Shown: positions 1,614 through 56,821, numbered from the stretch's first letter. The stretch is 64,000 nucleotides of DNA from Candidatus Magasanikbacteria bacterium RIFOXYD1_FULL_40_23 (GCA_001783215.1 MFRA01000001.1:62161-126160); one strand, 5' to 3'. The notes: a model not told the origin generated them from the sequence alone. Translations and numbers: made by a program.

Positions 1614-1616
1614 CGT

Positions 1617-2171: not shown

Positions 2172-2229
2172 TTTGTGATATACTTTATCTAGACTTCTGT
2201 TGTAGGTTTAGGTAAGACTAAAAAATACT

Positions 2230-4239: not shown

Positions 4240-4296
4240 TAATCTGTGTTATTGACAGCTCCGATAAAACAAAGGTCAGTCTAAACACTTATTTTT

Positions 4297-7200
4297 ATGG
4301 ATGAAAAGCGCAACATTGCTGAATCTCATTATTTTACTGTTGTGTTATTTTTTATACTTACACTTACCGTTACGATAATCGGTATCTTTTTTTCTATTAA
4401 GGTAATTCGTGGAGCGGAAATTATTAACTGGACTCAAACTGATTGGCAAAGTGGAGTAGATAGTGGTGTTATTGCGACCAGCGCTTCAAATCAAACTGGT
4501 TGGACACAGTATTCCAGTGTAACTAATCTTTCTGCTACTTCATCGCCTGGGGATTTAAAACTCGCCACTACAAGTTCTATCGCAACAGACGATGGAACCT
4601 TTAGTGCTACAGGTCTTGCCACAGGAGGTGGGTTAAGCAATGGCACAGTAGTGAGTACGACTGTTTCCGAAAGCGGTGCGGCTGCGAGTGTTCGGCTCGC
4701 AGTAAACGCAACGACATCGGTAAATATTTTTGATTCTACGATGCCACCGGTGCCCGGAACAGTTTCAACGGGTAGCGGCATGATTCGAAATGGTGATGAT
4801 GACGAGATTTATGTGATTCAACCTGGTACGGGCTTTCACAAATATTCTGTTTCCGGTAATTCTTGGACGACACTTGCTGTTGTGCCTGGCACTGTTGGTG
4901 CGGGCAGTGAAATGATTCGCAATGGCTCGGACAATGATATTTATCTTCTTCAAGGTGGTGGTACTGGCATTTATAAGTACTCTATTTCTGACAATTCTTG
5001 GACCACACTTACTGTTGTGCCTGGTACTATTGGTAACGGTGGCACCATGATTCGTAACGGTTCGAGCGATGATATATATGTGCTCCAAGGTGGCAATGCG
5101 ACTGGCTTTTATCGTTATTCCATTGCCAGTGATACTTGGAGTGCGTTAACAGTAGTGCCAGCCACAGTTAACACTGGTGGTACTATGATTCGTAATGGCT
5201 CAGATAACGACATTTACGTTCTAGAAGGTACTGGCAGTAGTGCGTTTTTTAGATATTCCATTTCCGATAACTCTTGGACAACGCTTACAGCTGCGCCAGC
5301 TGTCGCCGGCAATGGAGCTACCATGATTCGTAATGGCTCAGACGATAACTTTTACTTTATTCCCAGCTCTTCTGGGGGCAGTACCGCTTTTTACAGCTAC
5401 TCCATCGCCAGTAATACTTGGAGTACATTAACAGTAGTACCAGCCTTTCTTTCTGGTCCCGCTTCCATGTTTCGGAGTGGGTCGGATGATTATATATATC
5501 TATTTCAAGGTGCCGTCACCAGCGCGTTTTTTAGGTACTCCATTTCTGGCAATTCCTGGACTACACTCACGGCACTGCCTGGCAATACTACAGTCAGTGG
5601 CGTTATGGTTCGAAATGGTTTGGATGACCAAATTTATGTTCTGGCAGCTGCCGCTACCAACGGTTTTTTTAAGTATTCTGTTTCTGGTAATTCTTGGGAA
5701 GGTTCAGGGGTTAGTTCAATACCAGCAGTTCCTGGCGCAGTTGGCACAGGTAGCGCTATGATCCGTAATGGCGCTGATGACGATGTGTATGTGCTCCAAG
5801 GCGGCAGCGCAACTGGCTTCTATCATTTTTCCATTGCCAGTAATACTTGGAATACATTAACCGTCGTGCCAGCTTCGGTTTCTACAGGTGCTTCCATGAT
5901 TCGCAATGGTAGTGATGATAATATTTATGTGCTTACAGGCAATGGCACTGGTTTCTATAGTTATTCTATTTCTGGCAATTCTTGGGCAACGCTTACTGTC
6001 GTGCCAGCTTCGGTTTCTACAGGTGCTTCCATGATTCGCAATGGTAGTGATGATAATATTTATGTGCTTACAGGCAATGGCACTGGTTTCTATAGTTATT
6101 CTATTTCTGGCAATTCTTGGGCAACGCTTACTGTCGTGCCAGCTTCGGTTTCTACAGGTGCTTCCATGATTCGCAATGGTAGTGATAATAACATTTATGT
6201 TTTAAGAGGTGCTAGCACTGGTTTTTATAGTTATTCTATCTCTGACAATTCTTGGACGACACTTACTGTTGTACCTGCTTCAATTGGAAGCGGTTCTTCC
6301 ATGATTCGTAATGGTTCGGACGATAGTATTTATGTCCTTCGAGGGGGGAGTACTGGTTTCTATTCTTATTCCATTTCTGGCAATTCCTGGACAACGCTTA
6401 CTGTTGTACCTTCCACTGTCGGTGCGGGTGGTAGTATGATTCGCAATGGTTCGGATGATGATATTTATATTCTTCGAGGCAATACTAGTAATGCGTTTTA
6501 TCGGTATTCCATATCTGGCAATGCTTGGACTACGCTTGTTACCGTACCAGTAAGTGTTGCTGCGGGCTGCATCATGATGCGTAATGGTGCTGACCATGAG
6601 TTATATATACTTCAAGGAAATAGCACCTCTAGCCTTTGGCGTTATCTCATAAACACCACGACATATTCCACGTCTGGTACTTTTACTTCAGCAGTCATTG
6701 ATACGGCCGGTGCGGCAACTTTTGGAAACATTTCTTGGACATCAGCGCTTCCAGTGAGCACAACATTAACGTTTGCGACGCGCTCAGGTGCTACTGCCAG
6801 TCCTGATGGTACATGGTCGGACTGGAGTACAGAACTTTCCAATTCTGCTGGCAGTGCCATAGTTTCGCCTGTAGCGCGATATATTCAGTATCGCGGTACG
6901 TTCGGCACATCCAATACAGCCAAAACCCCAACTCTCAGTAATTTTTCTTTAGCTTATAGCGCATATCAGCTCACTGGAAATTTAGTGTCATCTGTTTTCA
7001 ATACTGGTGAAGTTGATAATATCATGGGGGGTATTTCATGGACAGAAGATGTTTCACTTCCCACCAGCACAACTGTTACTGTATCCTTACGTACCGCTGC
7101 TTCTGCCGACAGTTTGATTGGTTCTTGGGTAGATTTTACTAACACTATAACGAATTGTACCAAATCATCCAGTACGGTTTCTTGTACGATTGATGCTTTG

Positions 7201-8061
7201 CCAACGGCGTTTAAATCTGGGGATGATGATCAGTATTTTCAATATAAAATTACCCTAACTTCCCCAGATGGCGTTGCTTCTCCGTCTGTTGGTGGTGTTG
7301 TTTTGTCTTATACTCAGCTGGATGCTGCTAGCGCAAGCGCGGGTGTTGCTTTTCCGGTAAATCAACTTGTTATATTAATTCCAACCGCTTCTACTTCTAG
7401 TGGCTCTGCAACTTCAACGCAGGAACAGATCCGTTCAAAAATTATTGAGGATGAAGCTCTAATTTTAAAAATGGAAGAGGCTGGACAAAAAGTGCCGATA
7501 GCGCTAAATCTATCCGCAAGAGATTATAAGGGGTTGTTTACTAAAGTCTTTGCATTCGGCTCTAAGAATATCGAAGTAAAAACCTTGCAACAGTTTTTGA
7601 ATGTCGCTGGGTTTATTGTAGCAAAAATGGGGCCAGGATCTCCCGGGAATGAAACTATTTTCTTTGGTAAATTAACAGAAGCGGCGCTTGCGAAATTTCA
7701 AGTATTCAATGGCATTACTATTGCACAAGGGAAGTTGGATCTTGAGACGCGTATTTTTATTGAAAATCTTAGTGGTACAATGTTGCCACAGTTATCAAAC
7801 GATAGAGTCCTTTCTCCTATTTTTACTCGTGATTTAAAATTAAAAATGACAGGAGAGGATGTCCGTTATCTTCAGATGTTTTTAAACAGTAAAGGCTTTA
7901 TTGTTGCTCCGTATGGCCCAGGATCTCCCGGGAATGAAACTATTTTCTTTGGTAAATTAACAGAAGCGGCGCTTGCAAAATTTAAAGTCAAGAATGATCT
8001 GCAGCCTTCATCTGGCTATCTTGATTCTAATACCAGGTCATTTATCAAATCCTTGCGTTAA
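4297..8061 (+). CDS. giant cell-surface repeat protein: N-terminal membrane anchor, ~17 tandem 45-aa repeats, two C-terminal peptidoglycan-binding (PG_binding_1-like) modules
   Basis: TM segment FTVVLFFILTLTVTIIGIFF; repeats of pattern MIRNGSDDxIYVLxGxxTGFYxYSISxNSWTTLTVVPAxV; two copies of FLNxxGFIVAxxGPGSPGNETIFFGKLTEAALAKF near C-terminus. Confidence 0.7.
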   Translation: MDEKRNIAESHYFTVVLFFILTLTVTIIGIFFSIKVIRGAEIINWTQTDWQSGVDSGVIATSASNQTGWTQYSSVTNLSATSSPGDLKLATTSSIATDDGTFSATGLATGGGLSNGTVVSTTVSESGAAASVRLAVNATTSVNIFDSTMPPVPGTVSTGSGMIRNGDDDEIYVIQPGTGFHKYSVSGNSWTTLAVVPGTVGAGSEMIRNGSDNDIYLLQGGGTGIYKYSISDNSWTTLTVVPGTIGNGGTMIRNGSSDDIYVLQGGNATGFYRYSIASDTWSALTVVPATVNTGGTMIRNGSDNDIYVLEGTGSSAFFRYSISDNSWTTLTAAPAVAGNGATMIRNGSDDNFYFIPSSSGGSTAFYSYSIASNTWSTLTVVPAFLSGPASMFRSGSDDYIYLFQGAVTSAFFRYSISGNSWTTLTALPGNTTVSGVMVRNGLDDQIYVLAAAATNGFFKYSVSGNSWEGSGVSSIPAVPGAVGTGSAMIRNGADDDVYVLQGGSATGFYHFSIASNTWNTLTVVPASVSTGASMIRNGSDDNIYVLTGNGTGFYSYSISGNSWATLTVVPASVSTGASMIRNGSDDNIYVLTGNGTGFYSYSISGNSWATLTVVPASVSTGASMIRNGSDNNIYVLRGASTGFYSYSISDNSWTTLTVVPASIGSGSSMIRNGSDDSIYVLRGGSTGFYSYSISGNSWTTLTVVPSTVGAGGSMIRNGSDDDIYILRGNTSNAFYRYSISGNAWTTLVTVPVSVAAGCIMMRNGADHELYILQGNSTSSLWRYLINTTTYSTSGTFTSAVIDTAGAATFGNISWTSALPVSTTLTFATRSGATASPDGTWSDWSTELSNSAGSAIVSPVARYIQYRGTFGTSNTAKTPTLSNFSLAYSAYQLTGNLVSSVFNTGEVDNIMGGISWTEDVSLPTSTTVTVSLRTAASADSLIGSWVDFTNTITNCTKSSSTVSCTIDALPTAFKSGDDDQYFQYKITLTSPDGVASPSVGGVVLSYTQLDAASASAGVAFPVNQLVILIPTASTSSGSATSTQEQIRSKIIEDEALILKMEEAGQKVPIALNLSARDYKGLFTKVFAFGSKNIEVKTLQQFLNVAGFIVAKMGPGSPGNETIFFGKLTEAALAKFQVFNGITIAQGKLDLETRIFIENLSGTMLPQLSNDRVLSPIFTRDLKLKMTGEDVRYLQMFLNSKGFIVAPYGPGSPGNETIFFGKLTEAALAKFKVKNDLQPSSGYLDSNTRSFIKSLR
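5866..6135 (+). repeat. two perfectly identical tandem 135-bp units (45 codons each) inside the repeat-protein gene; a third unit continues with divergence
   Basis: 5866-6000 and 6001-6135 are identical base for base (gtgccagcttcggtttctacaggtgcttccatgattcgcaatgg...cttactgtc). Confidence 0.85.
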
Positions 8062-17250: not shown

Positions 17251-17332
17251 TATTATATGGGCTAAAGCCCATATATACTCATTCACTCGGAAATAAACTA
17301 GCAAGCTATTTATTTCCTCATTCAATTCGTAT
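17251..17332 (+). repeat. ~85-bp intergenic repeat with hairpin ATATGGGC-TAAA-GCCCATAT, abutting rplQ start codon
   Basis: tattatatgggctaaagcccatatatactcattcactcgg...cattcaattcgtat immediately followed by ATG of rplQ; two further full copies in window. Confidence 0.8.
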
Positions 17333-26630: not shown

Positions 26631-26700
26631 GTCATTCTGAGCAATGCGAAGAATCCCTCTTTTTCAAACGAAAGGGATCCTTCACCCCGTTCAGGATGAC
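26631..26700. repeat. REP-like imperfect palindromic element GTCATTCTGAGC...GTTCAGGATGAC
   Basis: outer arms gtcattctgagc / gttcaggatgac and inner arms gaagaatccctc / gggatccttcac form a ~30-bp imperfect hairpin right after a stop codon. Confidence 0.7.
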
Positions 26701-26774
26701 AATGAGTCGGTATGACAGTGTGTAGTGTTTGGTTGTATAATTGTAAATAGGTTTAACTCATTTAATCTATTTGT

Positions 26775-35199: not shown

Positions 35200-36060
35200 T
35201 TGTTTATGTTTGATACGCACTGCCATGTACAGTTTAATGGTTTTAAAGATGATGCTGAAGAGGTAATAAAAAAATGCGGTGACAAAAAAATGATTTTGAA
35301 TTTGGTTGGTACTCAAAAAGATACTAGTCGTGCCGGGGTAGAGATGGCCAACAAATTTCCGTTTACCTATGCCAGCATCGGGCTTCATCCAGTTCATCTT
35401 TTTTCTACTCATATAGACGAAGAAGAGAGTAAGTTTTTGTCGCGCGAAGAAACTTTTGATTATGAGTATTATAAAAATTTGGGACAGAGTAAAAAAGTAA
35501 TAGCAGTGGGGGAGTGTGGATTGGATTTATATAGATTACCAGAAGGACGAACAGTAGAAGAAGTGCTAGAAAAACAAAAAGAAACTTTTGCGTTGCAATA
35601 TAAATTGGCGCAAGAATTAAATGTGGCATTGGTAATTCATGTGCGAGAGGCGCACGAGCAGATGATAGAACTTTTGAAAAAACTTTCTAACAACGGTTCG
35701 GTGCGCGGAACGGTGCATTGTTATACCAGCAATTGGCATTTTGCCCAGCAGTATCTAGATATAGGTTTAAATATAGGTTTCACCGGTGTGATTACTTTTC
35801 CTCCAAGAAAAGCAGATCCACAAGCGCAAACAGATTTGCTAGAAGTAGTAAAAAATTGTCCGCTAGATAAAATAGTAGTAGAAACAGATGCGCCGTACTT
35901 GGCGCCGTTGCCATATAGAGGCCAAAGATGTGAACCGCAAATGGTGGAGCAAACCATTCGAAAAATTGCTCAATTAAAAAATATTTCCTTTGAAGAAGCG
36001 GAAAAAGCTACGACCGAAAACGCCAAAAAATTATTTAGAATTTCTTCTGAAAAAAATTGA
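35200..36060 (+). CDS. tatD: TatD-family metal-dependent DNase/hydrolase
   Basis: MFDTHCHVQF N-terminal HxH, GLHP, GECGLD, VIHVREA, ETDAPYL motifs. Confidence 0.9.
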   Translation: MFMFDTHCHVQFNGFKDDAEEVIKKCGDKKMILNLVGTQKDTSRAGVEMANKFPFTYASIGLHPVHLFSTHIDEEESKFLSREETFDYEYYKNLGQSKKVIAVGECGLDLYRLPEGRTVEEVLEKQKETFALQYKLAQELNVALVIHVREAHEQMIELLKKLSNNGSVRGTVHCYTSNWHFAQQYLDIGLNIGFTGVITFPPRKADPQAQTDLLEVVKNCPLDKIVVETDAPYLAPLPYRGQRCEPQMVEQTIRKIAQLKNISFEEAEKATTENAKKLFRISSEKN

Positions 36061-36111
36061 ACCCCGCACCGAACATCGGGCGAGGTAAAGCGTGGGTGTT
36101 GACCGCGAGAG

Positions 36112-36369
36112 TTATCGGGGTACACGCACCTTTTGGGGTCCGTACCTTCTACAGGCGATGTCTTCCTCGGTAATATCGTTGAGGTCGAATTCCATGGAAG
36201 GCGTAAAACCGCCGGTCATGCTAGTGAAGAAGTCCTCTAGCCACTGGTTGAATTCCTTGCCCAGGGACTGTAAGAACGCAATCGTCCAGTAGGTCAGCTC
36301 TTCTCCCAAGGAGCTGAGAGAATCTGACAATTCGTCAATCAACTTCTGAAACTCACTTTTCTTCTTCAT
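36112..36369 (-). CDS. small acidic protein (85 aa), G+C-rich island 2
   Basis: AGAGGA SD before ATG; upstream TTGACC promoter-like box (36420-36415); MKKKSEFQKLIDELSDSLSSLGEELTYW... Confidence 0.5.
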   Translation of the reverse strand: MKKKSEFQKLIDELSDSLSSLGEELTYWTIAFLQSLGKEFNQWLEDFFTSMTGGFTPSMEFDLNDITEEDIACRRYGPQKVRVPR

Positions 36370-36432
36370 GGGTTCCTCTTCCCAGTATTTAACCTATCAT
36401 ATTTTAGATTAGACGGTCAATTATATACAGTA

Positions 36433-36467
36433 ACAAAAAACACTCTGTATTATAGAGTGTTTTTTGT
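36433..36467. terminator. bidirectional intrinsic terminator (A-run / palindrome / T-run)
   Basis: aaaaaacactctgtattatagagtgttttttg: stem AACACTCT/AGAGTGTT flanked by A6 and T6. Confidence 0.65.
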
Positions 36468-36603
36468 TATCCGAGTGAGGTTATATGGCTGCAAATTTGT
36501 TCACCACCATCTTTCTAAAAGACAAGTTTTATCTCTAGAAAGATAGTGAGGTGGCGAACGAATGTTGCCAGGCTCACTGTTAAACGACGTTATAGTCGGA
36601 GGG

Positions 36604-36984
36604 CTAGAAGCCCAGTGTTGCGAGAGCCTGATCGGCTTCGTCGGGAGAGCAAGTGCCCATCCGTTGAGCGATCATGATCTGGCTCGCAACAGGTGTTGCT
36701 TGCGGCAACAATTCCTCGAGCACAGACCGGCGCAAAACCATGAGCGCTTGCAGAATCGAGAGTCGATCCAACAAGGGCAGGTTCTTCTGCTGGATGCGCA
36801 ACGCAAGGACCCGAAGGTCCATTGTGCCGAACAGTACCATGCAGGCTTCGTTGTGTGAGCGAAAGCTCGGGGACTGGAAACCCCCGGGCAGTTCGCGTAA
36901 ACTGCCATCCTGGCAGAGCTCCCCAGTAGCGAGGATGAACTGACCAGTGTGGCCGATGGGCTTGACGAAAACTCGCTCGTTCAT
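36604..36984 (-). CDS. small protein (126 aa), island 2 (start at MNERVFV)
   Basis: GGAGG 10 nt upstream of ATG; balanced composition unlike overlapping Arg/Ser-rich alternative frames; own promoter. Confidence 0.55.
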   Translation of the reverse strand: MNERVFVKPIGHTGQFILATGELCQDGSLRELPGGFQSPSFRSHNEACMVLFGTMDLRVLALRIQQKNLPLLDRLSILQALMVLRRSVLEELLPQATPVASQIMIAQRMGTCSPDEADQALATLGF

Positions 36985-37049
36985 AATGATGGCCTCCAAG
37001 CCTGGTTGAGAGAACGGTTTGTTCCCTCAGCGGGCAGAAAGAACGCGTT

Positions 37050-37109
37050 ATTTTGCCGAGGGAAAGGAAAAGACGATCTTTTCGTATGTTCTTTTCCCTG
37101 GCAAAAGGC
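37050..37109 (-). promoter_or_regulatory. conserved structured 5' UTR hairpin (UUUUGCCAGGG...CCCUCGGCAAAA), copy 1 of 3
   Basis: transcript reads ccttttgccagggaaaagaacatacgaaaagatcgtcttttcctttccctcggcaaaat; outer and inner inverted repeats; ~90 nt upstream of start codon. Confidence 0.55.
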
Positions 37110-37138
37110 GTTACTGCGTGGATTGTAAAGAGCTCTGT

Positions 37139-37167
37139 AATATAGGTTAAAATCTTGCCTTTGTCAA
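37139..37167 (-). promoter_or_regulatory. sigma70-like promoter TTGACA-17-TATATT for 36604-36984
   Basis: minus strand taTTGACAaaggcaagattttaaccTATATT. Confidence 0.55.
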
Positions 37168-37367
37168 TAGGCAAACCCACCACTCTATTTGGAAATATAC
37201 CACTGGGGATATATAATCAATATACACCTAAGATGTGCCTAAAGTTACAATCTATACAAAAAATCAAAAACAGCCTTATCTAAAGCTGTTTTTTAATGGC
37301 GACGTCGTGGTATGCACGACGTCGGCGAGTCGTAATTCTTCTAAACCCGTATCATCAGTCCTGTGGA

Positions 37368-37634
37368 CTAGATGATCTCGAGTTCGACCCTCTCGTACTT
37401 GATTCCCGGATGGGTGGGCTCGTCCCAGTCGAAGTATAGCTCATACACCGCTTCGTCAACGGCAGCAGCGATCTCTTCTGGTGTTCCCAACAACATCGGC
37501 ATGGAGTCGTTGTCGTTTGCAGTCTCCTCGGTTTGAGGAGTGCTTCCGTTGTCTTCTAGAGACTGACCACGTTGATGGGTCATCAGCACGGATTCTGCAA
37601 GTGCGAGGAACTGCGGATCTTCAGGACGAATCAT
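37368..37634 (-). CDS. small acidic protein (88 aa), island 2
   Basis: AGGAG SD; MIRPEDPQFLALAESVLMTHQRGQSLEDNG...; own promoter. Confidence 0.5.
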   Translation of the reverse strand: MIRPEDPQFLALAESVLMTHQRGQSLEDNGSTPQTEETANDNDSMPMLLGTPEEIAAAVDEAVYELYFDWDEPTHPGIKYERVELEII

Positions 37635-37714
37635 TCAGTAGCTCCTAGGAGAGTGGGGTTTATCAATACGAGACGACGCGCAAGTTTGGTTGCGGTGTCT
37701 CATTATGACCAAAA

Positions 37715-37743
37715 ACCATACCATAAAATGTTGTTAAAGTCAA
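37715..37743 (-). promoter_or_regulatory. sigma70-like promoter TTGACT-17-TATGGT for 37368-37634
   Basis: minus strand cTTGACTttaacaacattttatggTATGGT. Confidence 0.5.
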
Positions 37744-37770
37744 GAGCGTAGGGTAGAAAATGATTAAAAT

Positions 37771-37817
37771 AAAAAAAGCCTCGCTTTCGCAAGGCGTCGC
37801 CGTGTATTTTGTTTTTT
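37771..37817. terminator. bidirectional intrinsic terminator
   Basis: aaaaaaagcctcgctttcgcaaggcg...tattttgttttttgg: hairpin GCCTCGC/GCAAGGC with A-run and T-run flanks. Confidence 0.55.
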
Positions 37818-37824
37818 GGCTGTT

Positions 37825-38184
37825 TTAGCCAACAATTATGGATCGCTTGACCCGATTTTCCGTAAGGTAATCAATCACTTCGGAAAGGTCTGGGTTGCTG
37901 TTTCGGATATCTCTGAAACGTGTGTTGAGCAGAGACTTTTTTCCAAAGATAGATCTTGCATACGGCAATCCATTTTGGACTATTCTCTTGACGTCGAAAC
38001 GTCTATCTTTGTTCGGCCCTTCGAAGATAACGACAGTTTCGTCATCTTCGACGATTACAGAGCAGCTCCAATCTTCTTCGCCCACCAACAGATGTGGTGG
38101 ACCAGAATCATCTTTGGGCGGTTCAAGTTTTAGCACGAGCAGGTTGATGCTGCGGAGCAAACCCATGATATGTTGTACCGTCAT
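37825..38184 (-). CDS. small protein (119 aa), island 2
   Basis: GGTGAGG SD; promoter TTGAAA-17-TATATT upstream; plus-strand overlapping ORF lacks signals. Confidence 0.5.
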   Translation of the reverse strand: MTVQHIMGLLRSINLLVLKLEPPKDDSGPPHLLVGEEDWSCSVIVEDDETVVIFEGPNKDRRFDVKRIVQNGLPYARSIFGKKSLLNTRFRDIRNSNPDLSEVIDYLTENRVKRSIIVG

Positions 38185-38217
38185 GGTGCCTCACCCTTTG
38201 GTTGTTTAGTATAGACG

Positions 38218-38246
38218 AATATACCACCAAACCTTTATTTTTTCAA
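38218..38246 (-). promoter_or_regulatory. sigma70-like promoter TTGAAA-17-TATATT for 37825-38184
   Basis: minus strand gcTTGAAAaaataaaggtttggtggTATATT. Confidence 0.5.
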
Positions 38247-38312
38247 GCTAAATTTACAACGTCACTCTTTAGCGGATGTTGCGTGGTATAACTTAATTAA
38301 GTCAAAAAAAAG

Positions 38313-38362
38313 ACCTCGTATTGAAGTTGCCTTGGGGGCTATTCAATACGAGGCTGAACGTC
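38313..38362 (-). terminator. intrinsic terminator of 38403-38798
   Basis: 12-bp stem CCTCGTATTGAA/TTCAATACGAGG with 16-nt loop, T8 on minus strand. Confidence 0.65.
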
Positions 38363-38402
38363 TTGGTCTGCTTTGCGACTGATGTCGCTGGTAGAACCTA
38401 GT

Positions 38403-38798
38403 CTACTGCTGAGCGGTGTTGCGGGGGTACAAGTAGATGTAGCACCCCGTGTCGTGCGAGTCGACCGCGTAGCCGGTCTGGTCCTTCTCGGCCTCGAGGC
38501 GGAGCTCGACGTTGGTCGGCAGGCTGCGGACGATCGCGTTGATCTCCTTGTTGGCCTTGGCGCAGGGGATGCGGCCGAGGCGAGCGCGGAGCTCGAGGTC
38601 CTGGATCTCCTTGATCGCGGCCTTGAGCTGCTTCTTGCTGATGCTCTTGGCAGCCGCGGCGCGCACGGGCTTCTTCTCGTTGGTGTCGTTCGCCTTCGAG
38701 ACGAAGCCGGCGTCGGCGTGGGCCGTGCTGATGCCGAGGTCGAACAGGGCGATGAAGCCGACGGTCAGGGCGATGGCGATGATGGCGATGCGGGTCAT
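38403..38798 (-). CDS. small secreted protein (131 aa, signal peptide), island 2
   Basis: MTRIAIIAIALTVGFIALFDLGISTAHA signal-peptide-like N-terminus; GAGGAG SD; lysine/alanine-rich mature part. Confidence 0.55.
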   Translation of the reverse strand: MTRIAIIAIALTVGFIALFDLGISTAHADAGFVSKANDTNEKKPVRAAAAKSISKKQLKAAIKEIQDLELRARLGRIPCAKANKEINAIVRSLPTNVELRLEAEKDQTGYAVDSHDTGCYIYLYPRNTAQQ

Positions 38799-38857
38799 GG
38801 GACTCTCCTCGGTAACGGGTTCGTAACGTTAACTGCTTGCCGGCGCACAAAGGTGTG

Positions 38858-38914
38858 CTTTTGTGCCGGGGAAGTGAAAGTGTAGCCTCTACACTCCCTT
38901 TTCCCTGGCAAAAC
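38858..38914 (-). promoter_or_regulatory. conserved structured 5' UTR hairpin, copy 2 of 3
   Basis: transcript reads cgttttgccagggaaaagggagtgtagaggctacactttcacttccccggcacaaaag; same outer arms UUUUGCCAGGG/CCCCGGCA.AAAA. Confidence 0.55.
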
Positions 38915-38945
38915 GCAAACAGTTATTATTAAAGATCAACAGACA

Positions 38946-38974
38946 ACTATACCATAAAACTAGGACTTTGTCAA
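38946..38974 (-). promoter_or_regulatory. sigma70-like promoter TTGACA-17-TATAGT for 38403-38798
   Basis: minus strand ccTTGACAaagtcctagttttatggTATAGT. Confidence 0.55.
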
Positions 38975-39040
38975 GGGGTTGATTTGGCGAAATCACGTCG
39001 CGTAGCGTCCATTGAACGCGACGTTTGGCTAATTTTAGGC

Positions 39041-39084
39041 AAAAAAACAGCGCTACCTACACCTAGTTGGTGAGTGGTAGCGCC
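39041..39084 (-). terminator. intrinsic terminator of 39116-39529
   Basis: minus strand gcgctaccactcaccaactaggtgtaggtagcgc then tgttttttt. Confidence 0.55.
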
Positions 39085-39115
39085 TGCGTTGGTACGGCTC
39101 TAGTCGCAGTTGCGA

Positions 39116-39529
39116 CTATGGCCAGATAAGTGGAATGTCCATGCTGGGGTAGATGGCCTCCAGGGTGTAGAGGTCCATGTCCATCACGGACAGGTACCAC
39201 TCGAAGTCGAAGAGTTCGACGGAAGTCGTGGGAGGGTTAGCATCCCACCAAGCACAGTTGCCAAACCGCCACCTTCGCAGAGCTTCGTAGTACTCCGCTT
39301 CCAGCTCGACAAGCTTGTCTCGACAAGCTTGGCTAGTCGTGCCGCCGATATAGCGACAGGTAAGCTTTGGGTATTGGAGCTGGCTCTCGGCGAGGGTGTA
39401 TCGCTGCTTCAGCTTCTTGCACGTATCGTAGTCGTACGTGCCCGAGGGTGGCGTATCGGCATAGGCCGTGCCGACGTTCGGCAGCAGCATGCCCAGAGCA
39501 ATACACATCGCGATCAGGATCTTCACCAT
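39116..39529 (-). CDS. small secreted Cys-containing protein (137 aa), island 2 (start at MVKILIAM)
   Basis: GGAGAG SD before internal Met; MVKILIAMCIALGMLLPNVGTAYA signal peptide; four Cys in mature part. Confidence 0.55.
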   Translation of the reverse strand: MVKILIAMCIALGMLLPNVGTAYADTPPSGTYDYDTCKKLKQRYTLAESQLQYPKLTCRYIGGTTSQACRDKLVELEAEYYEALRRWRFGNCAWWDANPPTTSVELFDFEWYLSVMDMDLYTLEAIYPSMDIPLIWP

Positions 39530-39564
39530 TTCTCTGTCTCTCCAATTTCTTCTGTGACGGTTGA

Positions 39565-39619
39565 TTTTTACCAAGACGAAAGAAGCTACGAATTTCGCAT
39601 ATTCTTTTATCTCGGTAAA
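39565..39619 (-). promoter_or_regulatory. conserved structured 5' UTR hairpin, copy 3 of 3 (with compensatory ACC:GGU for GCC:GGC)
   Basis: transcript reads ctttaccgagataaaagaatatgcgaaattcgtagcttctttcgtcttggtaaaaat. Confidence 0.55.
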
Positions 39620-39652
39620 GAGCAGACCGCTTGGTTAAATGAGCGATTCGCC

Positions 39653-39682
39653 ATCTTATATTAAAAAATGCCTTTTGTCAAT
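39653..39682 (-). promoter_or_regulatory. sigma70-like promoter TTGACA-17-TAAGAT for 39116-39529
   Basis: minus strand taTTGACAaaaggcattttttaataTAAGAT. Confidence 0.45.
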
Positions 39683-39699
39683 AGTCGGACTAGTAGATC

Positions 39700-40010
39700 A
39701 TTTTCAAAAATCCTTGATTTTACTTTGATTTACATGTAAAATAATCGCGTTCTTACCATTTTGTATAGCTTAACCACTTCGCGTATGGAACAGGAATAAT
39801 TACAAAATCTTCCAGTCGTGATTACCAGATTTTGTCCTTTAAAATCATCGAAAGTTTTGGTGCTTCTATTGCAGTACCAGTGGTAAGATTTGTTCTAATC
39901 GGTCAATACTTTGATAAAAAATATAACTTATAACCGTTGTTTACTGTTATAGCCTTTGTGCTGGCCGCTGCCACCACTCAAAACGCAAAAAAACTATTTA
40001 GTAAAATGAT
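39700..40010 (+). pseudogene. decayed duplicate of atp-operon promoter plus atpZ/atpI-like gene (direct repeat of 43355-43660)
   Basis: ~85% identical by eye to 43355-43660 including TTGA(t/c)T promoter; reading frame broken: atggaacaggaaTAA after 4 codons and second in-frame TAA where intact copy has LSP. Confidence 0.7.
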
Positions 40011-40023
40011 GTTATAATTAAGT

Positions 40024-40854
40024 ATGAATGAAATAAAACACGGAATGGATCCGGAGACTGCTCGAGAAGAGGGAAGAAAATCTGTTCGTGAAACGCTAGC
40101 GCATACGTTAGGGTTTATTGCTCAGCGCATAGATGCGGAAGGGTTAGATTCGCTAGAGGACGATGCGGTTAAAGCTTTGTGTAGTTATAGAATGGGAGAT
40201 GCGCTTAGGGTGGAAGTTGAGATTCCAAAATCAATAAGGAAGTTTTTTGCAGAACGAAAAGATTTTTCCGTTTTAAAAAAAGTTTTAGAAGACACAACCG
40301 AAACGATGAATAAAATTATCTCCAATCCCGATATCTTTGTTACTGGTACTTCTGATTCAGAAGAACAGAAAATAATTAATAAACAACTTGTTACAGAACG
40401 CGACCAGGCTGAAAGTTTGTATAGAGTATTGGTTTGGAAAGCTGTGCTGCACCATCTTGCTCCTACAGATATTGCTGGTTTTACAGAATTTTGTGAATGT
40501 ATAGAGCGTTATGATGCAATGCTTGTGTCGCGAGGTATAACACGTAAGGCAGCCTCTAGCTTGCTTGGAAACCGCTTTTTCTTATTGGAAAAATCGCAAA
40601 GTTGGGTAGAAAAATTGTCGCACCCGGAAGGTGCGAAAAATCGGCCATTTTCTGAAGCTGAACCGAACTTAGAGAGTGTGAGCAACTATATTGTTGATGG
40701 TAATTCCGCTGAATGGGTCGAGGGCTATGCCGCTCAGAATGTTCAATTTAAAACAGATTTAATAGAAAAGATCCATTCTTTTATAGATATTAATGAAGAG
40801 GTAAGTGTACGGGCTAGTGAATGGTTAAAAAATCAGCAGTCGCTAGAAAATTAA
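40024..40854 (+). CDS. hypothetical protein (276 aa), cassette gene 1
   Basis: hydrophilic ORF, no motif assigned. Confidence 0.5.
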   Translation: MNEIKHGMDPETAREEGRKSVRETLAHTLGFIAQRIDAEGLDSLEDDAVKALCSYRMGDALRVEVEIPKSIRKFFAERKDFSVLKKVLEDTTETMNKIISNPDIFVTGTSDSEEQKIINKQLVTERDQAESLYRVLVWKAVLHHLAPTDIAGFTEFCECIERYDAMLVSRGITRKAASSLLGNRFFLLEKSQSWVEKLSHPEGAKNRPFSEAEPNLESVSNYIVDGNSAEWVEGYAAQNVQFKTDLIEKIHSFIDINEEVSVRASEWLKNQQSLEN

Positions 40855-40858
40855 ATAA

Positions 40859-41806
40859 TTAGTTTGTTATATCATCTTCTTTATCAAAAGAAAATTGACC
40901 ATCAGGACAGTTGAAAAGTTTATCAAATAGTAGGCGGGGATCAGGGTATTTTGTTATTACACTATGGAAGGCTTGTGCAATCTCATTCCCTCCATCATTT
41001 TCTGCACTTTGCTCTCCAGCAGTATGGTTTGAAGGAAGCAGGTCTTCAAATTCCTCTAACTGACGTAGCGTTTCGGTAGACAACTCCGGCGGGTAATGTA
41101 TGTTATAATCATATAGTCTCTGGCTAGCGGCAAAGCTTTCCATTGCGTCTTCGGGAGATTCGCCCGGTTCAAGGTTTATTGTAGCGGTTATATTTCCGTT
41201 TTTTACCGCTTGGGTTGATTTATTATCTGCAATTATTTCCAATTCTTTACGGCGTGCTTCTGGAACAAGTTTCATGTAGTGTGCGGGAATCTCAACGCTA
41301 GAAGCGTACTGCACTATTTGATTTTCTAAAAAAATAACAAATGTATCGCGAGCTACAGTCAAAATATCTTTATTATTACTACGGTATTCTAGGAGTAAAT
41401 ATGCCCTTTGAGGCAGTAGCTGTTCTACTATTACCGATAAGGCAGTACGCTGAAATCCGGGAAGTTTTTCCCATATTCCTTTTAGTGCAGCTTCATTTAT
41501 TTTAATTTTTTCGATCGGGGTCCAGTCTGGATTAAAGTTGTTTCGTACACCCTCGAGACTATATAATAGTAACATAGCTACAAAAGCCGGTAAATCTCTT
41601 GCGGTGGCCATTAAATTTTTATCCTCTAGTACTCGTAAGTATTGTGCTTCGGCAGGGGTTAGTGGTTTTTGGTTTTCTACAGCAAGCATCTTTTCGTATT
41701 CATCAACTAAACTGTTGTAAGCTTTTTTTGACTCTGGAGATAGGATAAGTTCTAAGGATGGTTCATCGGCCGTCAGTGCGTCAAAATGGTGTCTTTGATT
41801 ATCCAT
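40859..41806 (-). CDS. hypothetical protein (315 aa), cassette gene 2, convergent with gene 1
   Basis: hydrophilic acidic ORF on minus strand, stops 5 nt from gene-1 stop. Confidence 0.5.
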   Translation of the reverse strand: MDNQRHHFDALTADEPSLELILSPESKKAYNSLVDEYEKMLAVENQKPLTPAEAQYLRVLEDKNLMATARDLPAFVAMLLLYSLEGVRNNFNPDWTPIEKIKINEAALKGIWEKLPGFQRTALSVIVEQLLPQRAYLLLEYRSNNKDILTVARDTFVIFLENQIVQYASSVEIPAHYMKLVPEARRKELEIIADNKSTQAVKNGNITATINLEPGESPEDAMESFAASQRLYDYNIHYPPELSTETLRQLEEFEDLLPSNHTAGEQSAENDGGNEIAQAFHSVITKYPDPRLLFDKLFNCPDGQFSFDKEDDITN

Positions 41807-41960
41807 AAATCAAATTTAATTTAAAAACTTATTAATATACTAACATCTTAATTCTAAGACAGTCAATTCAAGCTTTTATTTAGTTGATTTTTCTATTAAA
41901 AAGGGCTAAACTTTCCATGTCCCCACCTTTAATTTATAAGATTTTATTTAATATAATAGT

Positions 41961-42440
41961 ATGGCCGAGCATTTTGAAGGCGGTTATCATTCAAAAGAAG
42001 AACCGACAACAGTCGAAGTAGATCAAGACGAAGAATGGAAGTTTGCTTCGGCCCCAGCCGTTATTGAAACAACAGGGCTTGGTCCTTGCTTTGGTATAAT
42101 TATTTATGATCCCGAAAGCAAGTCTGCCTTTCTCGGGCATTTTGTTGACCCCCGTACAAATGGTTTTGATGGCATGCTAGCAGAAGCTAAAAAACATTTC
42201 AAAGATTTTACCAATTTGCAGGCATATGTTGGTGGAGGTGAACCAAATCCCGACGATGCTCCCTATTTTAAAGAAGACAAAGCCAAAAGAACCTTTGTAA
42301 AAAACAAGTTACTTCAAAGCGGGTTTAACAAGGAGAAGCTCAAAATTAAATATCAGGACTCAAACCAAAGTACGATTTTAAGAATTGATACGGTTACTGG
42401 AAACGTAGATTGGGACACCGAAGACGAGGATAACTATTGA
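41961..42440 (+). CDS. CheD-like (glutamine deamidase fold) protein, cassette gene 3
   Basis: TTGLGPCFGIIIYDPESKSAFLGHFVDP matches CheD catalytic-Cys block (T.LGSCV.V.LYDP....GG..H.MLP); 159 aa = CheD size; TATAAT ends 3 nt before ATG (possibly leaderless). Confidence 0.45.
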   Translation: MAEHFEGGYHSKEEPTTVEVDQDEEWKFASAPAVIETTGLGPCFGIIIYDPESKSAFLGHFVDPRTNGFDGMLAEAKKHFKDFTNLQAYVGGGEPNPDDAPYFKEDKAKRTFVKNKLLQSGFNKEKLKIKYQDSNQSTILRIDTVTGNVDWDTEDEDNY

Positions 42441-42501
42441 CACCTCTTAAATGTTCCACTACCCAGAATAAACGATTTTTTATTATTTAAATTTTATTTA
42501 T

Positions 42502-43341
42502 ATGGGAGAACGAAGGAAAAACCCCTCAGAAGCAGTGGGTGCTGGTAAAAAAGAAAAACATGAATTTAAGTTTAAGGAATTAAGCGAGGAAGAAAGATAT
42601 GATGAAGCGAAAAAAAACGCTCGTATGGTTCTCAAAGAACTTGCTCCGGCAGGTTCTACCGATGATACTCAGGTGGCATATCACTGGAACGAACACGACT
42701 TTGATTCCAATCCGAAAATAGCAACTATTGGAGAATTGCGTATAATGATAGAGCACATGGAAGATTGTAATGCGGGAGGGCCAGGGTATCCTGGTATGCG
42801 TTTTACTATTTCTCATTTAAGTGTGGGGGATGAATTTGTAAGGCGTGAACGCGTGGTATCTTTTTGTCGTGAGGCTAGGTTAAAAAATTTATCCAAATGG
42901 GGTCCGTTAGAAGACGACGCTGTTATTTGGGTAACCACCACGAAACGCCCGCAACCAAGGAAAACAATAGTGAGAGAGTGGTTGGGAATGTTGGGAAAAT
43001 TAGATTACGCTGCTGCAGAAGCAGATAACGAAATGGGAGGGGAACACATTGTTTCTATTGATCCAAATTTTGATCCAAAAAAATGGGACGAGGAAAACCG
43101 TAGAGAACAGGTTGGAATGATACAAAAGGTAATTGATGCTGTAGAAAACCGGGGCCGATTGTTAGAAGGGTTAGAAGCAAGAAAAGACAAGTCTCTAGTA
43201 CGCCTTTTTTTTCCTAAGACTGGCGAGAGTATCACTCTAACGCCTAAAAAAATGCGTTTACATATTCAGTCATTATCACGTGGTGTTCTTGAAGACCAGG
43301 AGCCAATTTTTACCGACGTCTATGCATCTGAGGATAATTAA
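42502..43341 (+). CDS. hypothetical protein (279 aa), cassette gene 4
   Basis: hydrophilic ORF, no motif assigned. Confidence 0.5.
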   Translation: MGERRKNPSEAVGAGKKEKHEFKFKELSEEERYDEAKKNARMVLKELAPAGSTDDTQVAYHWNEHDFDSNPKIATIGELRIMIEHMEDCNAGGPGYPGMRFTISHLSVGDEFVRRERVVSFCREARLKNLSKWGPLEDDAVIWVTTTKRPQPRKTIVREWLGMLGKLDYAAAEADNEMGGEHIVSIDPNFDPKKWDEENRREQVGMIQKVIDAVENRGRLLEGLEARKDKSLVRLFFPKTGESITLTPKKMRLHIQSLSRGVLEDQEPIFTDVYASEDN

Positions 43342-43372
43342 TTTTTACCAAAGGCATTATTTTTCAAAAACC

Positions 43373-43401
43373 TTGACTTTTCTAGGATTTATATGTAAAA
43401 T
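43373..43401 (+). promoter_or_regulatory. sigma70-like promoter TTGACT-17-TAAAAT of atp operon
   Basis: ccTTGACTtttctaggatttatatgTAAAAT; duplicated (degenerate) at 39712-39740. Confidence 0.55.
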
Positions 43402-43443
43402 AGTCGCGTTCTTACCGTTTTATATAGATTCGTTACTTAACGT

Positions 43444-43719
43444 ATGGAACCGCAAAACCCACAAAAATCTTCCGGCCGTGATTACCAGATATTGGCCTTC
43501 AAAATCATCGGAAGTTTTGGTGCTTCTATCGCAGTGCCGGTAGTAGGATTTGTTCTAATCGGTCAATACTTTGATAAAAAATATAGCTTGTCACCGCTGT
43601 TTACTATATTAGCCTTTGTGCTGGCCGCTGCAATTTCTGCAAAGATAATCCACAAACAAGCAAAAAGTTTTGGCGCAGAATACAAAAGGTTAAATGATGC
43701 TGGAAAGATAATCAAGTAA
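43444..43719 (+). CDS. AtpZ/AtpI-like small membrane protein preceding atpB
   Basis: 91 aa, two hydrophobic segments, position immediately upstream of F0 a-subunit. Confidence 0.5.
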   Translation: MEPQNPQKSSGRDYQILAFKIIGSFGASIAVPVVGFVLIGQYFDKKYSLSPLFTILAFVLAAAISAKIIHKQAKSFGAEYKRLNDAGKIIK

Positions 43720-43723
43720 ATTT

Positions 43724-44518
43724 ATGTCAGAAATACACATTCCAACTCTGGCTCCGGAAACAATATTTCATATTGGCAAGTTTCCGATTACCAACACTAT
43801 GGTAAATGTCTGGTTGGCTATTGCGTTATTTTTAATCCTAGGACTATTTTTACGAAAACAAATAAAACTCAAACCAGGAAAAACTCAAAACTTTATAGAA
43901 TATTTCTTAGAAAAACTTTTTGTATATTTTGACCAGGTAACCGGAAGCCGCAAAAAAACAATGCAGTTTCTGCCAATTACCGGGTCAATTTTTTTCTTTA
44001 TATTATTATCTAACTGGTTAGGCTTACTCCCTGGTACCGGTAGTATTTTTGTTGGAGAAGCGCCACTACTTCGTCCAGCAAATACAGATTTAAATCTTAC
44101 CGTGGCTATGGCACTTGTCTCTGTTATTTCCTCACACCTGTTTGGATTATTTAGCGTAGGTGTATTTACACACTTAAATAAATTTATTCAGATTGGTACA
44201 TTTTTCAAGAGTCTTACCAAAGGTCCGATTGCAATTTTTACAGCTATTATAGAATTAGTGGTAGGTCTTATCGAAATTATTAGTGAAATGGCCAAAGTGT
44301 TGTCTTTATCTCTCAGATTATTTGGAAATATTTTTGCCGGAGAAGTTCTTATTACTGTAATCAGTAGTATTGCGGTGGCAATTGTGCCGGCTCCATTTAT
44401 GATGCTAGAGCTTTTGGTAGGTTTAATTCAGGCCAGCGTATTTACAATGCTTACACTTGTATACCTAACTGTTTTAACTACCAAACCACATGGAAGTCAT
44501 GACGAAGAAAAACATTAA
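43724..44518 (+). CDS. atpB: F0F1 ATP synthase subunit a
   Basis: LSLSLRLFGNIFAGEVL conserved Arg region of subunit a. Confidence 0.9.
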   Translation: MSEIHIPTLAPETIFHIGKFPITNTMVNVWLAIALFLILGLFLRKQIKLKPGKTQNFIEYFLEKLFVYFDQVTGSRKKTMQFLPITGSIFFFILLSNWLGLLPGTGSIFVGEAPLLRPANTDLNLTVAMALVSVISSHLFGLFSVGVFTHLNKFIQIGTFFKSLTKGPIAIFTAIIELVVGLIEIISEMAKVLSLSLRLFGNIFAGEVLITVISSIAVAIVPAPFMMLELLVGLIQASVFTMLTLVYLTVLTTKPHGSHDEEKH

Positions 44519-47475: not shown

Positions 47476-47560
47476 CGATTATATGGGCTAAAGCCCCATA
47501 TATACTCATTCGTTCGAAAATATTTTAGCAAGCTAAATATTTTACTCACTCACTTCGTAT
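47476..47560 (+). repeat. ~85-bp intergenic hairpin repeat abutting atpG start codon
   Basis: cgattatatgggctaaagccccatatatactcattcgttcgaaaatattttagcaagctaaatattttactcactcacttcgtat then ATG. Confidence 0.8.
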
Positions 47561-48505
47561 ATGGCAATTAATACAAAAGTAATCAAACGCCGCCTTAAAT
47601 CTATTGGTAGTACCAAAAAAATTACCAAAGCTATGGAGATGATTGCGGCTGCCAAAATGCGCAAAGCGGTAAGCGCTGCTATAGATACGCGCGCTTATTC
47701 CAGCTTGGCTTGGGAACTTTTGGTTAACTTGTCCAAAACTCAAAAAGTACAAATTCCATTGTTGGAAGCAAGGCAAGTAAAAAAGATTTTGGTTATCATG
47801 ATTACTTCTAATCGTGGTTTGTGTGGTAGTTTTAATGCCAATATTATAAAAAAGACCGCTCTGCAAATGAAGGATCCAAAAAATATTGCTAAACAGGTAA
47901 TTGATGGAAAAGAAATATTGCCAAGCGACAGAGTAGAGGTAGATGTAATTGGTATTGGTAAAAAAGGCGCAGACTTTGCCAAAAAGATGGGCTACAACCT
48001 TACCGCCGCTTTTTCTAACATGACAGATACTCCAAATTTTGATGATGCGTTACCGATTGCCAAAATGGTAATAGATGCATATGAGAAAAAAACTTACGAC
48101 AAAGTAATTGTTGCTTATACCGATTTTAAATCGGCTTTAGTGCAAACTGCCAGACTACGACAAGTGTTGCCAATATCCGAATCTGATTTAGAAAAAACTT
48201 TATTTGATACAGAAGAAAAAAACTCTGTAAAAGAAAAAACAAATTTAAATGATTATTTATTTGAACCAAACAGAACTGATGTTTTACAAATAATTTTACC
48301 AAGGCTGGTTGAAACACAAATTTATCAAACGATGCTAGAATCTTCGGCCAGTGAACATAGTAGTCGTATGGTGGCTATGAAAGCTGCTAGTGAAGCAGCC
48401 AAAGATATGATAAGTGAATTAAATTTAACATTTAATAAAGCTAGACAAGCGGGCATCACCCAAGAGATCGCAGAGATCGCAGGTGGGGCAGCAGCGCTAG
48501 AATAA
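47561..48505 (+). CDS. atpG: F0F1 ATP synthase subunit gamma
   Basis: MAINTKVIKRRLKSIGSTKKITKAMEMIAAAK N-terminus; C-terminal helix. Confidence 0.9.
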   Translation: MAINTKVIKRRLKSIGSTKKITKAMEMIAAAKMRKAVSAAIDTRAYSSLAWELLVNLSKTQKVQIPLLEARQVKKILVIMITSNRGLCGSFNANIIKKTALQMKDPKNIAKQVIDGKEILPSDRVEVDVIGIGKKGADFAKKMGYNLTAAFSNMTDTPNFDDALPIAKMVIDAYEKKTYDKVIVAYTDFKSALVQTARLRQVLPISESDLEKTLFDTEEKNSVKEKTNLNDYLFEPNRTDVLQIILPRLVETQIYQTMLESSASEHSSRMVAMKAASEAAKDMISELNLTFNKARQAGITQEIAEIAGGAAALE

Positions 48506-48520: not shown

Positions 48521-48592
48521 GTCATTCTGAGCAAAGCTGAAGAATCCCTCTTGTCCCAATGAAAGGGATCCTTCACTCCGTTCAGGATGACA
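48521..48592. repeat. REP-like palindromic element (full copy, same family as 26631)
   Basis: gtcattctgagcaaagctgaagaatccctc...gggatccttcactccgttcaggatgaca. Confidence 0.7.
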
Positions 48593-56440: not shown

Positions 56441-56524
56441 TTATATAGGGGCTAAAGCCACATATATACTCGTTCGCTCAAAAATATATTAGCAAGCTAA
56501 ATATTTTATTTACTCACTTCGTAT
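56441..56524 (+). repeat. ~85-bp intergenic hairpin repeat abutting start codon of DUF721-like gene
   Basis: tttatataggggctaaagccacatatatactcgttcgctcaaaaatatattagcaagctaaatattttatttactcacttcgtat then ATG; ~90% identical to 47476 copy. Confidence 0.8.
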
Positions 56525-56821
56525 ATGGCAATGCAATCACTAGGACAAATTCTAAAAAAACAAATGCCGCAAAGCTCCGCTGGCAAACAAGTGACAGCCA
56601 GCTTTATCGTAGAAAAAGCAAACCAAACTATAAAAGAACTATTTGGTGCTGGTTCATCTAAATTTTGTCAGGCTGTATATTTCAAAGATAAAACTATCGC
56701 CATTACTTGTCTTAGCTCCGTAATGGCTCAAGAAATTAAGCTAAACGAGAAAAAAATAATATCTGCAACTAACGATAAATTGGGTGTGCAAGCTATAGAA
56801 AAAGTGCGATATTTGTTCTAA
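56525..56821 (+). CDS. DUF721/DciA-like small protein
   Basis: 98 aa; pattern ...ASFIVEKANQTIKELFGAGSSKFCQAVYFKDKTIAITCLSSVMAQEIKLNEKKII... resembles DUF721 (V..F..G.L.I.V.S..WAQEL). Confidence 0.45.
   Translation: MAMQSLGQILKKQMPQSSAGKQVTASFIVEKANQTIKELFGAGSSKFCQAVYFKDKTIAITCLSSVMAQEIKLNEKKIISATNDKLGVQAIEKVRYLF

Follow-up and report, generated by a model that had tools for sequence, protein, structure and literature searches.

The tatD-atpZ interval, directly upstream of the atp operon for the F-type ATP synthase, was analysed in a 64,000-nt stretch of DNA (hereafter the window) from the Candidatus Magasanikbacteria (Patescibacteria) genome GCA_001783315.1. This locus holds two alternative versions of a hypervariable tatD-atpZ slot in tandem. 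The first, resident unit consists of the 3' end of tatD, a GC-rich island, the atp promoter and the 5' part of atpZ. The second unit (39972-43631, 3,660 nt) consists of a remnant of the tatD 3' end, a cassette of the four genes c276, c315, c159 and c279, and again the promoter and the 5' part of atpZ. Our preferred explanation, to which we give a probability of roughly 0.55, is that a circularised donor fragment from a relative was integrated by a single crossover, i.e., by a Campbell-type insertion-duplication.

Direct duplication of the atp promoter and the 5' part of atpZ

The duplicated segment is present at 39701-39971 and 43361-43631 in direct orientation, with a start-to-start spacing of 3,660 nt. 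The copies agree at 231 of 270 aligned bases (85.6%) with two 1-nt indels (BLAST E ~1e-74), and the longest identical run comprises 39 nt (39887-39925 on the plus strand, equal to 43547-43585). Similarity drops abruptly at 39971/43631 and at 39697/43356. A first-pass annotation of the window had described plus-strand repeats at 39700-40010 and 43355-43660 with about 85% identity, covering the promoter and atpZ. When the copies were aligned, orientation and similarity held, but the extent is reduced from ~310 to ~271 nt; besides the atp promoter and the 5' untranslated region only the first ~63 of the 91 atpZ codons are included, so that the gene is repeated in part only. The two copies are closest to each other, at 84-86% identity versus at most 76% to any orthologue.

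The downstream copy (43361-43631, plus strand) carries the working promoter. A sigma-70-type promoter, TTGACT-17-TAAAAT, is located at 43373-43401 and is followed by a leader of ~40 nt; its hexamers are kept across 15 orthologous loci. The copy is joined in frame to the resident 3' part of atpZ, and its right flank runs into atpB as it does in the sister species L023. The resulting intact gene (43444-43719, plus strand) encodes a member of the AtpZ/AtpI family, scoring above the Pfam gathering threshold (PF09527, 41.6 bits vs. a cut-off of 26.6, E 1.3e-10), and lies directly upstream of atpB, which starts at 43724 and is followed by the remaining genes of the ATP-synthase operon. As this copy keeps the conserved promoter next to atpZ-atpB and is fused in frame, expression of the ATP synthase most probably survived the insertion.

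The upstream copy (39701-39971, plus strand) is a relic of the promoter and of a truncated atpZ. Its promoter reads TTGATT-17-TAAAAT at 39714-39742, where the -35 hexamer has undergone a C to T exchange at a base that is invariant in 15 of 15 orthologous promoters compared. The relic gene starts with an ATG at 39785 and reads ATG GAA CAG GAA TAA, so that the frame is closed at codon 5; further on it has a 1-nt deletion, another TAA where Ser50 would be encoded, and Gly to Glu and Gly to Arg replacements in the membrane segment. To the left it is continuous with the GC-rich island, as in L023. The upstream atpZ copy is a decayed pseudogene that has lost its 3' end, in line with the first-pass annotation, which had called it pseudogenised on account of the early stops.

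The insertion event is not recent, because the relic, with its two or more nonsense mutations, its frameshift, its radical replacements and its mutated promoter, is common to all sampled strains. Polarisation of the copy differences with outgroups assigned 18 changes to the downstream and 17 to the upstream copy and left nine ambiguous. The upstream-derived coding changes fall mostly on codon positions 1 and 2 and the downstream-derived ones mostly on position 3. These substitutions were considered for dating and were dropped as a clock, since third positions are saturated and AT-biased and since some of the 14% divergence may be older than the integration if a single crossover is assumed.

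An empty site in relatives and a variable tatD-atpZ slot

For the comparison with relatives 80 loci from different Magasanikbacteria species were collected via atpB, and the proteins of the window were mapped onto them. The order cvpA-tatD-atpZ-atpB is conserved across the 80 species, with tatD and atpZ both present in 69. None of the 80 loci carries more than one atpZ, no direct duplication of the promoter/atpZ segment was detected among the 69 species, and a search of the stretch preceding atpB (up to 10 kb) gave no homologue of a cassette gene in any of the 80. The gap between the resident tatD (TatD_DNase, PF01026; 35206-36060, plus strand) and atpZ measures 7,383 bp here versus a median of 257 bp (range 23-3,046 bp) in the 69 species. 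The tatD-atpZ junction is a recurrent variable slot in Magasanikbacteria, spanning from 23 bp to 7.4 kb.

In L023, whose atpB is 86% identical, the site is empty and the order is tatD, GC-rich island, one atpZ and atpB. Positions 3563-3950 of the L023 locus align to window 39558-39973, which takes in the edge of the island, the divergent promoter region and the first ~63 codons of atpZ, and positions 3695-4801 align to window 43359-44491. A single 256-nt segment of L023 thereby matches both copies in the window, and each of these retains one chromosomal flank. Since L023 has an empty site with a single atpZ, the four-gene block reads as an insertion. Insertion by recombination had been proposed in the first-pass annotation; the empty site and the absence of cassette genes from the 80 loci bear this out, but a plain duplication of promoter and atpZ does not describe the event, as a piece of tatD was included. 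Likewise, the ~7-kb accessory region postulated there is real in size (7.4 kb vs. a maximum of 3,046 bp elsewhere), although its GC-rich part appears to be ancestral and to have a history of its own (see below).

A tatD remnant and a novel joint at the left edge of the inserted unit

The left edge of the inserted unit is formed by a remnant of the tatD 3' end (39970-40018, plus strand), which encodes ATTQNAKKLFSKMML followed by a stop codon. The similarity is secure for 39970-40002, so that the remnant amounts to 33-49 nt in all. The resident TatD ends in ATTENAKKLFRISSEKN and that of L023 in ATTENAKKLFNISL, each before the stop. The last codons of the resident gene (36007-36036) encode ATTENAKKLF and the counterpart in the remnant is ATTQNAKKLF, identical to the TatD C-terminus in 9 of 10 residues. 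Just two sites in the whole window match this C-terminal peptide at 7/10 or better, namely tatD itself and the remnant, and in 100 shuffled windows no match at 8/10 or better occurred. At the nucleotide level 26 of 33 positions are identical to the resident tatD, and six of the seven differences are synonymous (counted by eye). The remnant also gives a BLAST match to the end of the L023 tatD. The start of c276 lies 5 nt past its stop codon.

At the novel joint (39969-39972, plus strand) codon ~63 of atpZ is fused to tatD ~17-23 codons before its stop. The sequence reads GCCGCTGC on the atpZ side and continues with CACCACT, and the microhomology is restricted to a shared GC dinucleotide. Because the left edge is the 3' end of tatD and the right edge is the promoter with the 5' part of atpZ, the inserted unit would represent the whole tatD-to-atpZ interval of a homologous locus, with the four genes as its cargo, stacked in tandem behind the resident interval. 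Mostly synonymous differences are the pattern expected if the remnant diverged as a working gene in another genome.

Proposed integration of a circularised fragment by a single crossover

We propose the following course of events. In a related Magasanikbacterium the four genes would have been located directly between tatD and atpZ. A donor fragment that began ~20 codons ahead of the stop of tatD and ended at codon ~63 of atpZ would then have been closed into a circle by an illegitimate joint, which is now seen at 39971/39972, and the circle would have entered the chromosome via one RecA-type crossover inside the 271-nt promoter/atpZ homology. The cassette is taken as the newcomer of the two units on grounds of parsimony, as the island is present in close relatives. 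The event could presumably be fixed because a conserved promoter and an intact atpZ stay next to atpB.

The locus displays several features of a Campbell-type integration: a chromosomal segment flanking the insert is directly duplicated, each copy has one native flank while relatives keep the unduplicated empty site, and a novel joint lies inside the insert. Recircularised incoming DNA that integrates by a single crossover, thereby duplicating 109-950 bp of the homologous locus, is known from E. coli (PMC3240628), and in the naturally transformable Neisseria insertion-duplication by circular DNA is routine (PMC11658436). The locus shares with this type of integration the direct copies around the insert with one native flank each, the truncation of one gene copy and the lack of a dedicated recombinase. 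It differs in being a natural, fixed event in an uncultivated Patescibacteria lineage with copies that are 14% diverged, and in that the place of the vector is taken by the homologous interval of a relative, with the tatD remnant marking the joint of the presumed circle. There is also a likeness to homology-facilitated illegitimate recombination (as defined in PMC3240628), in which foreign cargo is placed beside a homologous anchor and one of the joints forms illegitimately, at sites sharing hardly any microhomology or none. However, classical events of this kind use linear DNA and usually delete recipient sequence, whereas the duplicated anchor of the present locus requires that the substrate was circular or that two chromosome copies took part.

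Several points weigh against this proposal. A donor-type allele, in which tatD is directly followed by c276, was found in none of the genomes or contigs looked at. The tatD remnant is short (33-49 nt), and the argument from synonymous differences is statistically weak. If the donor was already so diverged, a low efficiency would be expected for a crossover in a 271-nt homology of only 85% identity. The final structure is symmetrical, as a circle of either unit with a crossover in either homology leads to the same product. Finally, the four cassette genes have unrelated distributions: c159 belongs to a family of seven clusters, c279 has one homologue, c315 has none and c276 has distant relatives. 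As their distributions are unrelated, the cargo of the donor was itself mosaic and made up of rare genes.

As the chief alternative, the locus may have arisen in two steps inside a single genome: an unequal or illegitimate exchange would first have duplicated everything between the tatD 3' end and codon 63 of atpZ, the island with it, and the second copy would later have had its cargo replaced. This scenario leads to the same joint, with codon 63 of atpZ fused to the 3' end of tatD, and to the same flanking repeats, and the units are alike in size (~3.96 kb and ~3.66 kb). However, no similarity is left between the two interiors, two rare events are needed, and the left homology arm available for the replacement would have measured 33-49 nt. 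In addition, a dead tatD fragment should change at random codon positions, whereas the differences in the remnant are mostly synonymous. Taken together we regard this origin as possible and clearly inferior in probability to the single crossover.

Recurrence of the locus and strain variants

The locus, including the joint at 39971/39972, was recovered at 99.9-100% identity by several assemblers from several groundwater samples, in independent contigs. Exact-protein look-ups returned 12 contigs for the island protein i137, 15 for atpZ, 18 for c159 and 19 for c276, in overlapping sets. The cassette is present in every one of these contigs whose length permits a decision, and none of them has the two repeats collapsed to one. 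A metagenome pattern scan for the left flank, one repeat and the right flank gave no matches; it is uninformative, as the positive control with the left flank alone also gave none although this flank is present in the JGI contigs L003 and L004.

In the first-pass annotation the cassette was expected to be readily lost again, so that population variants with a single repeat should occur. Neither expectation was borne out: the copies are 14% apart with no identical run longer than 39 nt, the relic has decayed, all informative contigs carry the cassette, and a collapsed repeat was not seen among the contigs of the four look-ups. Some variability at the locus does exist, in the form of the two contigs L122 and L007, but it does not consist in a collapse of the repeats.

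The scaffold L122 (ERZ28563735 scaffold_16082, 3,097 bp) carries a truncated c159, c279, a hybrid repeat, the tatD remnant, c276 and a truncated c315. It corresponds to window 42062-43631 joined to 39701-41502, in circularly permuted order. The hybrid repeat agrees with the downstream copy at all 32 diagnostic sites before the 39-nt identical run and with the upstream copy at all seven after it. L122 has four private single-nucleotide polymorphisms absent from the other strains, and in the whole protein collection its hybrid open reading frame (ORF) occurs on this one contig only. The junction could be that of a circle, of a tandem array or of a mis-assembly. A 3,660-nt unit that is still active, being excised or amplified by homologous recombination between the repeats, so that some members of the population carry it in circular or tandem-array form, would explain the clean switch of type and the private polymorphisms. 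Against this, L122 is a single short scaffold of low coverage with an N gap, the switch is situated exactly where a mis-walk in a de Bruijn graph would fall, the reciprocal collapsed chromosome was not seen in the contig look-ups, and no replication or recombination gene was recognised. An active unit therefore seems unlikely to us.

An extension of this idea, which we hold to be slightly less probable still, is that the 3.66-kb unit is a living, integrase-free mobile cassette. The piece of the highly conserved atp promoter and atpZ would serve as its homing sequence; host recombination would release the unit as a circle, of which, or of a tandem array of it, L122 would be the trace; it would re-enter related genomes by single crossover and always restore the essential operon at the point of entry, and c159 and c279 would be a selfish or defensive payload. 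Under this reading c159 may act as a CheD-fold deamidase, and its relatives often stand beside toxin-antitoxin and transposase genes.

In the low-coverage contig L007 (ERZ5996431 NODE_30193) the c159-c279 pair is 99.9% identical, but with a junction at window position 41928 c315 and c276 are replaced by a HEPN/MNT toxin-antitoxin pair and a 477-aa ORF, which precede c159. L007 may stem from a variant strain, or else the right half of the cassette occupies a second site. Smaller differences occur in a co-occurring strain (L011/L118, ERZ4902888), which has a 118-bp deletion in the island gene i137 (39390-39507) and a 3-bp in-frame deletion in c159 (42049-42051), the cassette being otherwise identical.

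A site-specific integrative element or transposon that entered atpZ and brought a replacement 5' end, in the manner of prophages that restore their target gene, would likewise leave direct repeats around the insert and a target gene restored by the copy that adjoins it. Some integrative elements bring along a stand-in for the end of the gene that they target, e.g., e14 in icd or the islands in tRNA and tmRNA genes, and such elements use an integrase and a short identical core. They resemble the present locus in that the insert keeps the target gene intact by providing a similar, though non-identical, copy of the part it displaces, and a diverged partial copy remains on the far side. Here, however, neither integrase nor core was found, and the 5' end with the promoter is duplicated instead of the 3' end. 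The four cassette proteins gave no match to an integrase, transposase or recombinase in Pfam, NCBIfam, PHROGs and PADLOC. Terminal inverted repeats around the cassette were not found, and the 271-nt duplication is far above any target duplication made by a transposase, so that neither a transposon nor an insertion sequence is indicated. The composition is native rather than foreign, the tatD remnant is left unexplained, and nothing similar was found in phage, plasmid and viral collections: plasmid and phage DNA gave no match, and viral contigs none for the hybrid junction, for c315 or for the c159 profile. Such an element is very improbable.

An assembly artefact, in which two strain alleles were mis-joined via the shared promoter/atpZ segment, is effectively refuted: the structure does resemble two alleles in a row and L122 demonstrates that alternative joins can arise here, but copies that are 14% apart are not collapsed strain variants, and the joint 39971/39972, which both hypothetical alleles lack, is found 100% identical in IDBA-UD, MEGAHIT, SPAdes, JGI and Logan assemblies of different samples.

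The four genes of the cassette

Between the repeats c276 (plus strand), c315 (minus), c159 (plus) and c279 (plus) are encoded, with c276 and c315 convergent. As already noted in the first-pass annotation, none of the four belongs to the ATP synthase. Their GC content at third codon positions (GC3) is 0.30-0.34, versus 0.28-0.37 for host genes, and this composition would fit a related donor. Except for weak CheD hits, the scans of the cassette proteins against Pfam, NCBIfam, PHROGs and PADLOC gave no results.

The first gene, c276 (40024-40854, plus strand), encodes a protein of unassigned function without a match in these four libraries. It has 43 distant relatives, the nearest at 31% identity, whose contexts are short or uninformative; one of them follows a gene for a sigma factor similar to the extracytoplasmic function (ECF) type. 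The AlphaFold2 model is all-alpha with a predicted local distance difference test (pLDDT) score of 90 and has no fold match in the PDB. The sequence TGTTATAAT is located 5 nt upstream of the c276 ATG. Both c276 and c159 have a TATAAT hexamer 4-6 nt before the ATG and no Shine-Dalgarno sequence (40010-40026 and 41952-41963), which suggests that they may be transcribed as leaderless messages. As the cassette genes appear to have TATAAT-type signals of their own and the relic promoter is degenerating, the duplication of the repeat is probably a by-product of the integration mechanism rather than a regulatory device. Co-option of the relic promoter to drive c276 was considered as well and is disfavoured by the lost invariant base in the -35 hexamer and by the presence of the gene's own signal just upstream.

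The second gene, c315 (40859-41806, minus strand), is an orphan ORF convergent with c276. It matches no family, PDB entry or viral contig, and no homologue was found among 5.8 billion protein clusters.

The third gene, c159 (41961-42440, plus strand), had been called CheD-like in the first-pass annotation, and at the level of the fold this proved correct. By sequence the protein matches four CheD models of NCBIfam weakly, with 15-21 bits where the cut-offs lie at 240-369, which leaves it below the family thresholds, and it has no Pfam match at E<=0.1. A profile search against the PDB retrieved the Thermotoga CheD (2f9z_C, E 1.4e-4) with Cys and His aligned, and C43 and H60 are invariant in seven members of the c159 family, which comprises seven clusters in varied contexts. 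The AlphaFold2 model (pLDDT 79.5) has the same CheD structure as its top Foldseek match (E 2.5e-8, template modelling scores 0.69/0.71), followed by NTAN1, YfiH and CNF1. CheD, a chemoreceptor glutamine deamidase, thus shares the fold and the aligned Cys/His pair with c159, but the scores are ten-fold below the cut-offs, the chemotaxis context is missing, and NTAN1 and YfiH fit the fold too. Chemotaxis genes (cheC, receptors) were found neither at this locus nor around five c159 homologues; the neighbours of the homologues include transposases, a small helix-turn-helix (HTH) gene, HEPN/MNT and GIY-YIG genes, and dnaG nearby. Based on the profile and the modelled fold c159 is read as a stand-alone, putative Cys-His amidohydrolase of the CheD/NTAN1/YfiH fold with an unassigned target. 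In the three contigs L101-L103 a homologue (P0003) is located 13 nt after a gene for a 65-aa XRE-type HTH protein, and in L103 an MqsA-like antitoxin gene comes next after it, a layout that resembles a toxin-antitoxin module.

The last gene, c279 (42502-43341, plus strand), encodes a hypothetical protein with one homologue of 71% identity, which stands in an unrelated context (L104); in L007 it travels with c159. Neither c315 nor c279 has sequence relatives in the PDB.

The GC-rich island of the resident unit

The cargo of the resident unit is a GC-rich island (36061-39700, minus strand) with a GC content of 0.45-0.66 and syntenic orthologues in L023. Small ORFs are located on the minus strand at 36112-36369, 36590-37183, 37368-37634, 37825-38184, 38403-38798 and 39116-39529, and two of the island proteins, i131 and i137, have signal-peptide-like N-termini. 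GC3 of the island genes is 0.43-0.98 versus ~0.30 for the host, in a genome of 37% GC. Gene callers disagree on the strand within 36061-39700.

In L023 the island (1500-3700) reaches a GC content of 0.67 and contains syntenic, fast-evolving minus-strand genes for small proteins of 27-32% identity; the L023 proteins compared also have signal-peptide-like N-termini. GC-elevated intervals of 1.8-2.3 kb are present in six close species (L015, L016, L018, L019, L023 and L030). Because the island is syntenic in L023 and such intervals occur in six close species, it was probably already in place when the cassette arrived. It thus appears to be ancestral to the clade with a history separate from that of the cassette, which would have been added between the island and atpZ. 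No similarity was found between the interiors of island and cassette.

Neither the island nor the repeats contain a structured RNA that reaches the threshold of an Rfam family; two sub-threshold hits are attributable to chance. A 46-nt double hairpin without an Rfam match was observed at 38979-39024; it reads ACGTCGCGT...ACGCGACGT, followed by TGATTTCGCCAAATCA. Intergenic copies with 87-93% identity occur in two other Magasanikbacteria species (L026, 1295-1340; L086, 10787-10831), and the L086 copy shows a compensatory base-pair change. No tRNA was found in the window.

Other features of the window

Two families of intergenic repeats of ~50-90 nt with palindromes, 81-91% identical, are scattered over the window, one at 47480-47568, 56444-56532 and 17268-17315 and the other at 48539-48592 and 26648-26701. 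Some of the intergenic palindromic repeats are situated between atp genes (atpA/atpG and atpG/atpD). They look like elements of the repetitive extragenic palindromic (REP) or of the terminator type. Within an ORF of 1,254 aa (4297-8061) ~12 tandem copies of a 135-138-nt (45-aa) repeat are found at 4800-6650.

Significance

The locus is a natural example of a well-known outcome of recombination and does not define a new class of element; its interest lies chiefly in the gain of genes without an integrase in Patescibacteria, and in the L122 junction. For annotation it calls attention to a pseudo-atpZ, a tatD fragment and a stand-alone CheD-fold enzyme without chemotaxis context. It represents a clean footprint of gene gain driven by homologous recombination in an uncultivated Patescibacteria lineage with a reduced genome. 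An accessory block entered a conserved slot without an integrase and without breaking the adjacent, presumably essential ATP-synthase operon, and alternative alleles of such a slot can be stacked in tandem as well as swapped.

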